From IMG/VR virus record IMGVR_UViG_3300010354_000051, positions 32,001 to 96,000 of that record: a DNA stretch of 64,000 nucleotides, one strand, 5' to 3'. Positions 2,798-64,000 of the stretch are shown in pieces; positions within the stretch are counted from its first letter, which is position 1, and each line of letters begins with the position of its first letter. This DNA is from a virus. The position numbers and the translations under genes are program-made. The notes under the pieces were generated by a model, which saw nothing but the letters and a program-made list of their open reading frames with translations, did not search any database and was not told where the DNA came from.

Positions 2798-4673
2798 TTC
2801 AGTCTGGGACCGGACACGGTCTACAACCCACCGATCGACAGCATTTTCTCTAGTTCCTCCTCGTGTAACTTTTGAATTTGAGAACAGGGGTAGAAGAAGT
2901 AGTCCGGCCTTTCGGTCAGGCAGAGTAACCTTTGTAAGCGGTCAGCAGCTAAATAAGTCAAGAGACGAGGTAATTAACCAGAACTACGACTCGAACTCCT
3001 TTCACTCAATCTCCAATACATATACCCCGGCTACGTTACTTCCAGAGACCGGAGATGTGTACTTTCACGGAGTTAGAACAGAGTCCGGGTTAGAAAACTG
3101 CGCATTGATGAACTCGACCTGTATCGGCACAGGTTCGGATTCTCAATGTGAGAGAGGGAAATGTAAAATAGGTACTGTTACTGCTACGACTAAAAAGAAT
3201 AAGTGGAGATTCGATTCGGCCACGGTTCCTGGACTGTACTACTATGTATTTGGGACGGATTCAATTACTCTGAAGTCGGTGGTTCGGGGCAGTTTTGTTC
3301 TGCCGGCCGGCCAATCGGCCATAGCAGTAACAAACATAGCTAGCATCCCTACAACTATCTACCTCCCGCCTAACTCTTATTCTGAGGAGACATTTGTAAG
3401 GCGGGTTATTACTGTTGTTTCAGGGTCTGAGCTGAGGGGGATTAAGGACAGTGCTAATGATTTTGTCAGAGAGTTACTGCAGAACAATTTGGCCAGTGTA
3501 GCAGTTGAAGACGAGGTAAGAAATAGAGTAGAAAATGCAATAGTGTCTTCTTTAGATAAAATTTGGGCGGATTTTGTTCTATCCACAATCGCAACTATCT
3601 GGTCGGAATCCGGTCTGACTAACCGGGACTTTTTGTTAAGGGTTTACGAGGAAATGTCCGTCCTGTACCGCAGCTATTTGCAGGTCGGAATGAGTTCTGT
3701 GCGATTCGGTCGATTGAACACCGATCCTGACCAGGCTAGACCAGTCTACAATCGCCTGCCCGGCATATCAGGAGCGTATAATTCTGAGGACAATCCGGAC
3801 AACCCCTCCAAATGGCTTGTTTCAGGAGTTGACTCCTACCTCTCATTCTATAAAAACCATCTTCTGGACCGGTTTTATAGTTTATACCTGGATTATCAAA
3901 CTTGCTATCCGGGTTGTTTAGATTGGATAGGGCAGCACCTTGGGTACAGTTCGGAATTTTGGAAGCTGAGTTGGGATTCGTCCATTAAAAGAGCATTGAT
4001 AGCTAATGCCCATGTCAACAGAATTCAGGGGCAGATGTGGCAGACTTCGGACACGTTAAAGAAAATAGATTTGTCAGTCATAGAGACAATAAATGCCAAT
4101 TCGTTTACCGGAGTTGTAACCACTCAAGCTAGACATTTTAAGAGGCAGTATTATAGCTCTTACCAGGCAACCTATCTCACTCAAGAGTTGAACCTGACTG
4201 TCAGTTTAGCAAACTGGAATGGTATTTTGCCCGGAAAAGGTTCATTGACTACTTTAATGGTCTTGTTCTCGATATTTAATATCAAGGCGGTTTCCGGAGA
4301 AGAGCTTAAGTACAACTCTGACGGGACATACTCTGTCAAAAGCGGGCTTAGGCAGTATGAAGTCTCCGCCCCGATAAACACCCCGTACATGGTTGATAAT
4401 CTGCGTGTCGGGACTGAAACAGATTCAGAGGTGGGGAACTTCCCTAATCAGCTTGTGGCTGATCTTAGCAGATTTTATGACGATACCGCAGCTAATACGG
4501 TAGTCATTCGCATGCCTTTCTACTATAATAGAAATGGCAGAACTTGGAATTCTGTCCAGTCTATCGTTGATAACTTCGTGCCGACTAGTTCTGTTAGCCG
4601 AGTTCAATACGCTTACTCTGCGGCCGATTTGATGGTCGCCGGAGACTACTTCTTCGAGCCTATTATCGACTAA
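2784..4673 (+). CDS. P2 gpI-like baseplate/tail protein with long N-terminal extension
   Basis: CLDWIGQHLGY followed by W..SIKRALIA and GKGS motifs typical of the gpI family; follows baseplate J. Confidence 0.7.
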   Translation: MNLSNSVWDRTRSTTHRSTAFSLVPPRVTFEFENRGRRSSPAFRSGRVTFVSGQQLNKSRDEVINQNYDSNSFHSISNTYTPATLLPETGDVYFHGVRTESGLENCALMNSTCIGTGSDSQCERGKCKIGTVTATTKKNKWRFDSATVPGLYYYVFGTDSITLKSVVRGSFVLPAGQSAIAVTNIASIPTTIYLPPNSYSEETFVRRVITVVSGSELRGIKDSANDFVRELLQNNLASVAVEDEVRNRVENAIVSSLDKIWADFVLSTIATIWSESGLTNRDFLLRVYEEMSVLYRSYLQVGMSSVRFGRLNTDPDQARPVYNRLPGISGAYNSEDNPDNPSKWLVSGVDSYLSFYKNHLLDRFYSLYLDYQTCYPGCLDWIGQHLGYSSEFWKLSWDSSIKRALIANAHVNRIQGQMWQTSDTLKKIDLSVIETINANSFTGVVTTQARHFKRQYYSSYQATYLTQELNLTVSLANWNGILPGKGSLTTLMVLFSIFNIKAVSGEELKYNSDGTYSVKSGLRQYEVSAPINTPYMVDNLRVGTETDSEVGNFPNQLVADLSRFYDDTAANTVVIRMPFYYNRNGRTWNSVQSIVDNFVPTSSVSRVQYAYSAADLMVAGDYFFEPIID

Positions 4674-60160: not shown

Positions 60161-61720
60161 ATGGCTCGCAGATTTCGCCAACAACCCGAAATAGTTCTCA
60201 ACTCTGAGAAGCCCTTGACAGAACAACAGCCCAGACGGGTTGTATATGTCGAGATGTTTCGGGCCGGCCCGCAGATCAGTTCTACGGGTCAGAAGATGGT
60301 GTTTTCGGAAGAAGACCTTGATCAGGTAGTGAATAGCTACCGGCCAACCAAACACGAAGCACCATTAATTATCGGCCATGACCAAGATGACAGTACACCT
60401 GCTCTAGGTCATGTCCGAGAAGTTTGGCGGAAGGGCAAATCTCTGTGGGGTAAGGTAGAACTTACCCCTAAAGCAGAAAAACTAATCCGAGACGGGGTGT
60501 TCAAAAAGGTAAGTAGCTCGTTCTACTTGCCCGATGCGGACACTAATCCCACTCCGGGTAGTCTGTCCCTTCGCCATCTCGGACTTGTGTCCATACCGGC
60601 GGTAAAAGGACTCACAGCCTTTTCCGAAACCCTACCCGAAGGCTCGATTACAATAACTCCAAGGGAGTCTTCTATTTCATTTCAAGAAAATCACCCAACT
60701 ATGGCTAGAAGAAAAACCGAAGCCCCCAAGCAGCAAGTTGTCGATCACGCTGACGGCAAGGGGATGACCATTAATGTGAATATTAATGGTGTTAAGGCTA
60801 ATGAGCCGGACGAAGTAAACGAAGCCGGCTTTGAAACCCAGAATACGGGCGCTGCTGCTCCGTATGACATGGAATATGGGGATGACATGAACCCTGAATC
60901 TCCCGCACCCGGTCAGGTCGATCCGAGCCTTCAGCGAACCGACATGGTCGAAGGGCCTGATGGTGGCGGCGACATGGGCGATGAGAGCGATGGCCAGGGC
61001 GACCCGATTCCGCCCGATGGCGAAGGCCCGGACGGTGACCAGGGCGATTCCGGCCCGGACGACAGCGGTGTGGACGACATGTCCGGTGACGACGACGAGA
61101 AAGTTGCTTCAGATCTCGCCTCTAAGTACACCGAAGAACAGCTCATTATGGCCCTGTACCAGCTTGCTCAGTCTTCCAGCAATATGGCTGAAGATTGCAA
61201 CATGCCCGGTTATAGCGAAGAAGAGCCTGGTGAAGAAGAGGTTTACACGGCGGAGTTCTCTGAGACTCCCGACCCTCTAGCTGAGAAAGTTGCCCAGCTT
61301 GAAGAAGAACTAGCCACTCAAAAGCGTGCTATGAGACAAAAAGAAATCTCTGATTTCTGTGAGACTCTGTACGATGATGGTAAGTTGACTCCCCAGGTTG
61401 TTTCCAGTGGCGATCTTGTTCGCTTTATGGAGACCTTGAACTCCAAGAACAGTGTGAACTTTAGCGAAAGCGGCAAAGTTTCCCAGTTCGAGTTCATGAA
61501 GTCTATGCTGGACAGCCTGCCCTCCATGGTCAGCTTCAGCGAAGTTGCAACTCAAGCCAGTGCTCCGAAGAAAGCTAAGCCGGTTCGGCCCAATGCCGAA
61601 GGTTATGTTTACGACGAGCGCAATTCCGAATTGCACTCCAAGGCTCTGAGCTACGCAGAGAAGAACAATACGGACTATATGTCCGCCCTAAGACTCGTCA
61701 TCTCTGACGAAATTGACTGA
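60161..61720 (+). CDS. prohead protease/scaffold (Mu gpI-like)
   Basis: EMFRAG, PLIIGH, PALGHV, KKVSSSFY, LRHLGLVSIPAVKGL, then acidic low-complexity and coiled-coil scaffold region. Confidence 0.9.
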   Translation: MARRFRQQPEIVLNSEKPLTEQQPRRVVYVEMFRAGPQISSTGQKMVFSEEDLDQVVNSYRPTKHEAPLIIGHDQDDSTPALGHVREVWRKGKSLWGKVELTPKAEKLIRDGVFKKVSSSFYLPDADTNPTPGSLSLRHLGLVSIPAVKGLTAFSETLPEGSITITPRESSISFQENHPTMARRKTEAPKQQVVDHADGKGMTINVNINGVKANEPDEVNEAGFETQNTGAAAPYDMEYGDDMNPESPAPGQVDPSLQRTDMVEGPDGGGDMGDESDGQGDPIPPDGEGPDGDQGDSGPDDSGVDDMSGDDDEKVASDLASKYTEEQLIMALYQLAQSSSNMAEDCNMPGYSEEEPGEEEVYTAEFSETPDPLAEKVAQLEEELATQKRAMRQKEISDFCETLYDDGKLTPQVVSSGDLVRFMETLNSKNSVNFSESGKVSQFEFMKSMLDSLPSMVSFSEVATQASAPKKAKPVRPNAEGYVYDERNSELHSKALSYAEKNNTDYMSALRLVISDEID

Positions 61721-61885: not shown

Positions 61886-62599
61886 ATGGCGACTGATCCT
61901 CGTTACATGTCGTTCGACCACCAGTATGTAGAGACCGTAACCGTCTCTGATGCTACCGCTCTACTTAATGGTGTAGAACGATGCCGGTTTGTTAAGAGAA
62001 CTGGCGCTTACCCTGTTGCCGGTGGCTATGCCGCTGGCGTGAACATCTACCGTATTTACGGTCAAGGTGAACTGACTGACAAAGGCTATCAGGTTGTCGA
62101 ATCTGATATGACCGCTCTTACTGGTACTCTGTCTATCAGCACCGCTGGTGTTGTGACCGGAGCCGGTACTAATTTCGATCCGCAAATGCCTGTCGGCACT
62201 ACGATCAAAATTGGTGCGAATCTTTACCGGGTTATGAGTGTAGCTAGCGACACTAGCGCTACCGTATCTCCCGCCCCTGCTACTTCCATTTCCGGCGCTA
62301 CTGCCTATATCTGGCCTGGTACTTGGGATGGTAAGTTTAACCCCAGCACTACCCCTAACAAGCCTGGCGTATTCCCGTACCAGGGCCTGATGAGTGTGGT
62401 AACGACTGGTATTGCCATTGTCGAAGTAGATTCAGCTTCTACTTTCGCTGTAGACGACGCTGTTTATTCCACCACTTCCGGTACTGCTTCTAGCACTGCT
62501 GGCTCGGGTGTAGTGATGGGTCGCTGCTTGGATGTAATCAGCGCTGCTGGTGCTGGTCAATACATTCGGGTGAAGCTCGGCAACGAGACTGGCGCCTGA
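61886..62599 (+). CDS. head decoration/cement protein (DUF2190-like) with inserted beta domain
   Basis: RFVKRTG..P.AG...GV and SVVTTGIAIVE...GRCLD...AGQYIRVKL; position just before the capsid gene; GGAG RBS. Confidence 0.75.
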   Translation: MATDPRYMSFDHQYVETVTVSDATALLNGVERCRFVKRTGAYPVAGGYAAGVNIYRIYGQGELTDKGYQVVESDMTALTGTLSISTAGVVTGAGTNFDPQMPVGTTIKIGANLYRVMSVASDTSATVSPAPATSISGATAYIWPGTWDGKFNPSTTPNKPGVFPYQGLMSVVTTGIAIVEVDSASTFAVDDAVYSTTSGTASSTAGSGVVMGRCLDVISAAGAGQYIRVKLGNETGA

Positions 62600-62630: not shown

Positions 62631-62690
62631 ATGATGAATCTTGATCAGGTAAGGGTAATTGACCCCATCCTAACTCAGCTAGCACAAGGT
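62631..62690 (+). CDS. major capsid protein, exon 1
   Basis: MMNLDQVRVIDPILTQLAQG; AAGGGA RBS; in frame with exon 2 after intron removal. Confidence 0.9.
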
Positions 62691-63602
62691 TAATTGTAGC
62701 CGTGCCAAAAAGAAATTTTTGGTATTATAAAGGGGTGAATTGCTGGAAAGCCTAAATCTCTTTGGTTATGGAAACTGTGTATGAGCAATTTATCGAGCAT
62801 TGTCGCTTGATAGAAGAAACAGATAAAGTGTCTGGGGTCTATATGGAAAAACACCACATTTTGCCCAGACATTCTGGAGGAACAAATGAAAAACAAAACC
62901 TCATTTATCTCACCAGAAAAAATCACATTCTAGCTCATTACTACAGATGGATAGCTTACAACTCTAAACCTGACAGGTTAGCTTACCTTTTTATGAGGGG
63001 AGACATAACTGGAGAGGCTAAGAGAGAAGCTAGTAAACTCGCACAAAAAACCTGGACATTTGAAAAAAGGTCTGCATGCTCTAAAAAAGCCTATCAGACT
63101 ATGCTTAAAAGAAAATCGGGGATTGCTGCTAGGGGAGAAACTTGGAGACAAAATGTCTCAAAAGCCTCTAAGAAAAACATCCTCCAAAACAGAAAGAGCA
63201 GATTTACGAATAAAACAGTTAGTCTGCAAAACTGTTCTTTTAGGTTTAAACATGGATCCAGGGTCCTTTTTATAAATCAAAAGGACTTTTCTGACTTTTC
63301 AGAAACTAGCAAATACCTGTGTGTTTTGTTGGGAATAAAAGTTAAGAAAAGTGAGCACTTAAAGTTTATAAGACTAGTGCGCGGCGAAAGAAAAGTATTC
63401 CATGGCATCAAAGTAGACATGGTGATCAGCAGCCAAGCCGAGAATGGGCAAAGTTTTCTCGGAAGGTTCAGAGACTAGGAGAATGAGTCCCAACAATAAT
63501 TTCTCCCACGAGTGCCCCTCAGCCTCAAGGCTGAAGATATAGTCCGAACTTACAGGAAACTGTAAGAAGTAGAAGATAAAGAGCTTCTACGATAACATTC
63601 TG
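62691..63602 (+). mobile_element. group I self-splicing intron (IA-like, 912 nt)
   Basis: P (AATTGCTGGAAA), Q (GATCAGCAG), R (GTTCAGAGACTA) and S (AAGATATAGTCC) elements; P1 with U.G pair, P10, P2, P3, P7.1, P8, P9 GAAA loop; terminal G at 63602. Confidence 0.95.
62762..63478 (+). CDS. intron-encoded HNH homing endonuclease
   Basis: EKHHILPRHSGGTNEKQNLIYLTRKNHILAH HNH motif; basic C-terminal DNA-binding region; likely ATG at 62768. Confidence 0.9.
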   Translation: MVMETVYEQFIEHCRLIEETDKVSGVYMEKHHILPRHSGGTNEKQNLIYLTRKNHILAHYYRWIAYNSKPDRLAYLFMRGDITGEAKREASKLAQKTWTFEKRSACSKKAYQTMLKRKSGIAARGETWRQNVSKASKKNILQNRKSRFTNKTVSLQNCSFRFKHGSRVLFINQKDFSDFSETSKYLCVLLGIKVKKSEHLKFIRLVRGERKVFHGIKVDMVISSQAENGQSFLGRFRD

Positions 63603-64000
63603 TACAAGAACGCTGACGGTGTAGCTACCTTCTTCGCTCCTTCCGTTTCCATGAACGTTAGAGCGGGTAGAACTTTGGTATTCGGTAAGGAGGCTTTTGC
63701 CGCTCAGAACTTCCTACGTTCTCCCGGCACTAACATCCAGAAGATCCAGAACCAATTCGGCACTCGGAGCTTCGCTCTTCGTCAAGAAGCCATTAGCTGG
63801 GAAATTGCCGAAGAAGTAGCCGCTGAGGCTAAGAATGGTGCTGCGGCTATCGACCTTCGCGCCTATGCCGCCAAGGACGCCGCTAACCGTCTAATGCAGT
63901 CTTGGGAAATCCAAGTAGCTGCTAAAGTCCAAGACATTACTCAGTACGAGACCGGTAACGTACTCGATCTGGCCACTTACAACGGTGGTGCTGATCAGTT
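63603..64000 (+). CDS. major capsid protein, exon 2 (runs off the window end; lambda gpE/Mu-like family)
   Basis: YKNADGVATFFAPSVSMNVRAGRTLVFGKEAF...; open to the end of the window; highly expressed codon usage. Confidence 0.9.

Follow-up and report, generated by a model that had tools for sequence, protein, structure and literature searches.

The major capsid gene of an S-TIM5-like cyanophage is, with a probability of roughly 93%, interrupted between codons 20 and 21 by a mobile IA-type group I intron of 912 nt. This assignment was based on the boundaries of the insertion, its homology to group I introns, the covariation of its helices, its intact endonuclease ORF and its presence/absence polymorphism among relatives, all of which were observed directly. 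The DNA analyzed, in the following called the window, comprises 64,000 nt (bases 32001-96000) of an IMG/VR virus record of 118.7 kb, which was estimated to be 74% complete. The S-TIM5-like relationship was deduced from the protein encoded from position 63603 onward, which was found 82-83% identical to the capsid proteins of S-TIM5, S-TIM54, S-TIM61 and S-TIM66. These phages form the genus Aurunvirus and have marine Synechococcus as hosts. The capsid protein of cyanophage S-CBWM1 showed 43% identity with the same part of the window protein. The gene order protease, decoration-like gene, capsid gene is the same in S-TIM5. Coordinates of all features are summarized in Table 1.

An earlier sequence-only reading of this DNA had placed the interruption after codon 20, at 62691-63602. 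The underlying details were found as described: exon 1 ends with GCA CAA GGT (62690), an in-frame TAA follows directly (62691-62693), and the capsid frame restarts 912 bases later with TAC AAG AAC at 63603, preceded by a G at 63602. In the intron-less phages S-TIM5, S-TIM54 and S-TIM61 the distance from the start of the capsid coding sequence to the downstream position that matches 63603 is exactly 60 bases. The first 20 residues of their capsid proteins are identical to the 20-codon ORF of the window, and ...LAQG/YKNA... (the slash marks the junction) is continuous there. Against these phages the proposed junction was exact to the base. The DNA comparison as such permits three cut positions, because TA opens both the intron and exon 2; only with cuts between 62690 and 62691 and between 63602 and 63603 does the exon end with U and the intron with G. 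The expected product of the removal, LAQG/YKNADG with a restored capsid motif, has continuous counterparts in the S-TIM proteins, and the motif was also continuous in distant capsid proteins. The motif (I/V)DPIL(T/S)..A.GY runs unbroken over the junction in the proteins of S-CBWM1, Rhizobium phage RR1-B and Chromohalobacter phage YPCBV-1.

The reading frame of exon 2 matched phrog_1005 ("major head protein") with an E-value of 8e-24. As this match begins at profile position 23, approximately 20 N-terminal residues are missing from the exon 2 frame. In the phage's own genome exon 2 continues uninterrupted to the stop codon and a second intron is absent. The 20 codons of exon 1 and the 309 codons of exon 2 add up to a spliced capsid gene of 329 codons. 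Compared to S-TIM5 gp153, the joined protein was collinear over the full length, with 100% identity for residues 1-20 and 79.7% for residues 21-326. The expectation that ORF callers miss the capsid gene altogether did not hold, as a truncated ORF starting from ATG 63651 would be called. For annotation this means that the real capsid gene consists of 20 + 309 codons, while automatic calls would yield a shortened capsid protein plus a stray "HNH endonuclease". No exact match to the spliced or intron-less junction, composed of the phage's own exon sequence, was obtained in IMG/VR or in metagenome contigs. Consequently, neither an identical intron-less allele nor a spliced transcript is on record. 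The absent match carries no weight for or against splicing.

Table 1. Positions of the capsid gene, its intron, the ribozyme helices and neighboring genes in the window, and of additional introns in related contigs (prefixed by the contig).
Feature	Position	Strand	Basis or remark
Head-maturation protease gene, upstream of capsid gene	60161-61720		phrog_976, E 9e-72
Decoration-like gene, 237 aa, upstream of capsid gene	61886-62599		weak match to Pfam "phage cement protein"
Capsid exon 1, 20 codons, last base U	62631-62690	+	100% identity with residues 1-20 of S-TIM5, S-TIM54 and S-TIM61 capsid proteins
Group I intron, 912 nt, starts with in-frame TAA, ends with G	62691-63602	+	absent in most relatives; RF00028; homologues at the same site
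P1, GGUUA/UAGCC, U-G pair at splice site (62690/62699)	62688-62701	+	sequence; invariant in 7 homologues
P10 guide UUGUA, pairing with UACAA (63603-63607)	62694-62698	+	covaries with 3' exon
P2 hairpin, GAAA tetraloop	62704-62723	+	compensatory changes in 5/8 pairs; loop GNRA in all homologues
P3/P3'	62731-62737 with 63513-63519	+	RF00028 alignment, covariation, fold
P4/P4'	62740-62746 with 63426-63432	+	RF00028 alignment, covariation, fold
P5/P5' stem	62750-62764 with 63409-63423	+	fold of ORF-less intron
Putative HNH homing-endonuclease ORF, 236 codons, in P5 loop	62768-63478	+	phrog_655, Pfam HNH, alignment of homologues
P5' and P4' strands, then P6/P6a	63409-63467	+	P6a: compensatory changes in 7/7 pairs; fold
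P7, GACUA (63473-63477)/UAGUC (63540-63544)	63473-63544	+	RF00028 consensus; invariant in 15/15 related introns
P7.1, P3' and P8, inside P7	63478-63506, 63513-63519, 63520-63533	+	P7.1 and P8 covary
P9, GAAA loop	63549-63566	+	compensatory changes in 7/7 pairs
P9.1	63569-63590	+	compensatory changes in 5/7 pairs; terminal G at 63602
Capsid exon 2, 309 codons in total	63603-64000 in the window, +532 nt beyond	+	phrog_1005 "major head protein"; S-TIM identity
Codon-194 intron of L024, 997 nt	L024:3523-4519		237-aa ORF, no Pfam match
Codon-287 intron of L006, 247 nt	L006:2085-2331		without ORF
Capsid gene of L082 (IMGVR_UViG_3300035670_006316)	L082:827-3781		five introns, after codons 8, 20, ~176, 194 and 294
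Introns of L082	L082:851-1161, 1198-2110, 2579-2817, 2872-3125, 3425-3678		six exons, two of 36 and 54 nt

For the proposed group I insertion the covariance model gave low E-values, but a score below the cutoff. A Rfam run over the whole window at gathering thresholds gave no hit. Using an E-value threshold, the family RF00028 matched a short stretch at 63333-63566, i.e. the 3' half of the intron, with 44.7 bits (E 7.5e-10), and it was the sole match in the phage's own genome with 46.2 bits (E 6.2e-12). These 44.7-46.2 bits, obtained with the 5' half of the model misaligned around the ORF, compare to a curated cutoff of 50 bits. The low score is explained by an ORF of ~640 nt which interrupts the model in P5: it parts the two ribozyme halves, so that the 5' half of the model is forced onto coding sequence and the family becomes visible only with an E-value threshold on a short stretch. 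The alignment agreed with the consensus at J6/7-P7, P3', P8, J8/7-P7' and P9. Introns without ORF at the same site scored above the cutoff, with 88.1 bits (L006) and 82.9 bits (L024), and they shared 72-73% identity with the window intron after removal of 62767-63400. An intein was ruled out by in-frame stops beginning with the first inserted codon, and a group II intron by the absence of a reverse transcriptase together with the lack of a matching RNA family.

The secondary structure was deduced from homologous introns. RNAalifold, applied to seven introns from the codon-20 site without their ORF, yielded P1, P2, P3, P4, P5, P6/P6a, P7.1, P8, P9 and P9.1, with compensatory changes in P2, P3, P6a, P7.1, P8, P9 and P9.1. 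For P5, the fold of the ORF-less intron was combined with an inspection of homologous introns; the P5b columns, misaligned in the variable loop, were not used. The window intron without its ORF folded with a minimum free energy of -86.3 kcal/mol (z = -4.2), and P1 to P9.1 were recovered. Pair counts were obtained from 18 contiguous 3' halves, taken from the codon-20 site and from paralogous introns at other sites. In these, 91.4% of the cells were paired compared to 73.9% in shuffles (0 of 500 reached the observed value) and 32-44% in controls with slid partners. Changes on both sides were observed for 25 of the 40 pairs of the 3' half, with P7 being invariant. In every copy, the loops L2 and L9 have the form of GNRA tetraloops. 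The P1 helix with its U-G pair, part of the sequence-only reading, was present and invariant in the 7 homologues. The guide at 62694-62698, claimed as the complement of TACAA, was found to covary with its target: UUGUA/UACAA in the window is replaced by CGGUA/UACCG in L034 and by UUAUA/UAUAA in L082. For the remaining core proposed there, P3, P4, P7, P7.1, P8 and P9 (GAAA), the Rfam alignment, the ORF-less fold and the covariation agreed.

Between P7 and P3' one covarying hairpin with a conserved loop was observed (P7.1, 63478-63506); a second hairpin was not identified in this interval. IA2 introns of the T4 and Twort type carry P7.1 and P7.2 at this position. The best DNA matches of the 3' core among cultured phages were introns of Staphylococcus, Bacillus, Clostridium and Streptococcus phages. 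The P7.1 hairpin and these matches point to subgroup IA as the probable affiliation. The 14-nt P3-J3/4-P4 motif GGGTGAATTGCTGG was discarded as a family marker; it matches more than 119 IMG/VR contigs of many phages and is generic to the intron type.

The ORF located in the P5 loop matched phrog_655 ("homing endonuclease") with an E-value of 6.4e-17, and other HNH PHROGs matched as well. Pfam HNH (PF01844) was found with 20.1 bits (E 7e-4), just under the cutoff of 21.4. Residues 29-57 contain the motif HH..(N)..N....H, for which an alignment with HNH domains of PDB entries was obtained. When the PDB was searched with the endonuclease sequence, the matches were marginal and confined to the HNH motif, and no structural homologue could be named. 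Its nearest relatives from cultured phages are the endonucleases of cyanophages S-SRM01 and S-CBWM1. The latter, annotated inside a psbA group I intron, shares 27.5% identity over 138 aa (E 5e-8). The start codon is supported by four homologues with 58-66% identity, in which an ATG or GTG aligns with the ATG of the window; a Shine-Dalgarno sequence was not visible upstream of it. The frame differs from that of exon 1. The last ~70 nt of the ORF (~24 codons, 63409-63478) span P5', P4' and P6/P6a and reach into P7, where the stop codon UAG supplies, with its U and A, the final two bases of the 5' strand of P7. P4'/P6 encodes the residues VISSQ, which every intact copy of the endonuclease retains. 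As judged from the aligned copies, this conservation shows an apparent dual constraint on 63409-63478. Intact copies of the gene occur in the window, L025, L034 and L082; in L045 it is broken at codon 54, and L006 and L024 lack it.

As to the suggested search for intron-less alleles in relatives, out of 80 related IMG/VR contigs 69 lack the codon-20 intron, as do all cultured S-TIM phages, and 11 carry it. Two of the inserts are ORF-less and 266-268 nt long, located at the same base (L006, L024), five are full-length, ORF-containing and 913-915 nt long (L025, L027, L034, L045, L082), and in the remaining four contigs (L011, L028, L029, L030) the intron's 3' end adjoins exon 2 at the contig edge. 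The 11 contigs come from at least 9 different datasets, and their sequences are diverged. The distribution on a capsid tree, built on exon 2 with the 30 nt next to the intron site left out, was patchy and required at least 7 gains or losses of the intron. L008, the nearest relative of the window phage, is without it. The exon 2 of the intron-bearing L011 is identical over 366 nt to that of the intron-less contigs L014, L017, L018 and L019, which indicates a very recent gain or loss. Homing elements are known to pass through a cycle of invasion, endonuclease decay and loss. The patchy distribution together with intact, broken and absent endonuclease genes fits a mobile homing element of this kind, and the cycle would apply here as well. 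Intron-less alleles combined with intact, decayed and absent endonucleases provide a natural series for the gain, decay and loss of homing introns in this lineage of uncultured marine phages.

Other explanations for the interrupted gene were considered. The insertion might be an unspliced homing-endonuclease cassette, with the capsid protein translated from the internal start ATG 63651 or produced as two polypeptides. An ATG-initiated ORF does begin at this position, and non-splicing endonuclease insertions exist in phages; MobE, which splits nrdA in Aeromonas phage Aeh1, offers a two-polypeptide model for such a case (PMC7344957). However, a complete group I core maintained by compensatory changes is present in the insert, and the endonuclease-less versions at the same site would be left unexplained by a bare endonuclease cassette. 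Furthermore, exon 1 shows 100% identity with the corresponding part of the intron-less relatives, and distant capsid proteins retain its motif. We therefore consider an unspliced cassette very improbable.

To the same very low degree we give credit to a real intron that no longer splices, in which case the contig would stem from a defective genome whose capsid gene is dead. The record was assembled from a metagenome, its completeness is estimated at 74%, and the Rfam score is below the threshold, a deficit accounted for by the ~640-nt ORF in P5. All core helices are intact in the window copy, P7, J8/7 and J6/7 agree with the consensus, and neither the endonuclease ORF nor either of the exons is disrupted, all of which argues against decay. 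Even less credible is an assembly chimera joining unrelated DNA inside the capsid gene. Apart from the metagenomic origin of the record nothing specific speaks for it, and it was rejected because the same insertion recurs at the same base in 11 other contigs with diverged sequences from at least 9 datasets.

For the favored reading, a mobile group I intron that is removed from the capsid mRNA, we infer the following course of splicing, role of the stop codon, and activity and target of the endonuclease. The late capsid transcript would be produced as a precursor. Ribosomes translating exon 1 would halt at the TAA at 62691-62693, the first intron codon, and thereby stay out of the ribozyme. In the folded RNA, P1 would present the U-G pair 62690/62699, with the P3-P9 core offering P7 as guanosine site. 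A free guanosine would attack the 5' splice site after U62690, exon 2 would be aligned by P10 (62694-62698 with 63603-63607), and with the exchange of the terminal G63602 the exons would be ligated to the capsid ORF of 329 codons. As every capsid subunit would depend on ribozyme activity, splicing must then be fast and efficient late in infection. The endonuclease would be translated independently of the capsid protein. Its start codon lies directly next to the P5 stem, so that expression of the endonuclease may be held back when the ribozyme folds. During mixed infection the HNH enzyme is predicted to cut or nick intron-less capsid alleles near ...CAAGGT/TACAAG..., and repair from an intron-bearing genome would copy the intron into the cut allele (homing).

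In its general logic, i.e. an intron with an early stop and a looped-out endonuclease gene, the element resembles the td intron of T4 with I-TevI. The td intron is a self-splicing IA-type intron in an essential gene, with an in-frame stop near the 5' splice site, a looped-out endonuclease gene and homing. I-TevI, however, is a GIY-YIG enzyme encoded in P6, whereas the enzyme of the window is of the HNH type, encoded in P5 with a frame overlapping P5' through P7. The orf142 introns of Staphylococcus phage Twort (IA2) and the DNA-polymerase introns of SPO1-like Bacillus phages share with the window intron P7.1 between P7 and P3' and the GNRA loops of P2 and P9. They differ in host gene and phage lineage, and the one hairpin identified in the window (P7.1) stands against P7.1 plus P7.2 of IA2. 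The classic example of a gene split by three introns is reportedly Twort orf142. In cyanophages, psbA is known to harbor group I introns (S-PM2, and S-CBWM1 as annotated). These also come with homing endonucleases, but they reside in an auxiliary photosynthesis gene, whereas the window intron resides in an essential structural gene.

Group I introns are well known from DNA-metabolism, lysin and terminase genes of phages; introns in capsid genes are rarer but have been published. For LittleE, a Cluster J mycobacteriophage, splicing of a capsid-gene intron was demonstrated by RT-PCR and N-terminal sequencing (PMC3706429). As in the window, a U ends exon 1, a G ends the intron, a homing-endonuclease ORF is present and close relatives are intron-less (PMC3706429). 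The LittleE ORF is LAGLIDADG-like and located on the opposite strand, in contrast to the HNH ORF of the window, which is encoded on the same strand and extends into the core of the ribozyme. The LittleE intron was classified as "most likely group I", whereas for the window a covariance-model match and covariation are at hand. Finally, LittleE represents a siphovirus system of Gram-positive hosts and the window phage a cyanomyovirus-like lineage that is marine or aquatic. For lactococcal phage Tuc2009, too, a group I intron in a capsid subunit gene is cited (in PMC3706429), a likeness by the description given there. With Tuc2009 and LittleE (PMC3706429) capsid-gene introns were already documented, and the novelty implied by the sequence-only reading was too high; the window intron is a well-supported example of a rare, known type of element. 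For the S-TIM5-like lineage, no introns were found reported in the literature searched, and the main paper on TIM5-like phages (PMC10087341) gave no match for S-TIM5 together with intron.

Among the relatives, group I introns interrupt the capsid gene at a minimum of 6 sites, after codons 8, 20, ~176, 194, 287 and 294. The codon-8 intron (MMNLDQVR/VIDP...), 36 nt upstream of the codon-20 site, was found in 7 contigs (L021, L024, L036, L051, L065, L066, L082; for instance L065:~1800-2964), with an ORF in four of them (L036, L051, L065, L066). In L065 this ORF encodes a GIY-YIG endonuclease (Pfam E 6.4e-12); over the stretch read, its sequence is shared by L051 and L066. With an HNH enzyme at codon 20 and a GIY-YIG enzyme at codon 8, at least two endonuclease families have their predicted targets within the first 20 capsid codons. 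In L082 five introns were delineated in one capsid gene. When its exons were joined following the rule of U and G at the boundaries, the product was collinear and gap-free with the 327-residue protein of S-TIM5. Four of the five introns scored above the Rfam cutoff; the fifth is the ORF-bearing intron at codon 20. As this allele is represented by a single metagenomic contig of 4.5 kb, it is a candidate pending independent confirmation. A published phage gene with as many as five introns was not found in the literature searched.

We lean slightly toward the view that the ~1-kb major capsid gene of S-TIM5-like cyanophages is a hotspot for group I introns. If so, virion production would tolerate serial self-splicing of its most heavily expressed mRNA, and the capsid gene would be a main arena of endonuclease-driven competition among co-infecting phages. 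Multi-intron capsid alleles could suit the study of exon skipping and splicing order in bacteria.

Two or three copies of GGGTGAATTGCTGG within a few kb were observed in some other viral contigs (L090, L141), suggesting that many more loci with several introns exist in uncultured phages.

Two observations concern the genes upstream of the capsid gene. In the head-maturation protease (60161-61720) a Mu-like protease I domain occurs together with a long middle region of low complexity, which is very acidic, abounds in D, E, G and P and may serve as a fused scaffold. The decoration-like gene (61886-62599) contains an in-frame insertion of ~60-70 aa relative to its S-TIM5 counterpart gp152 (166 aa), as was likewise observed in several relatives.
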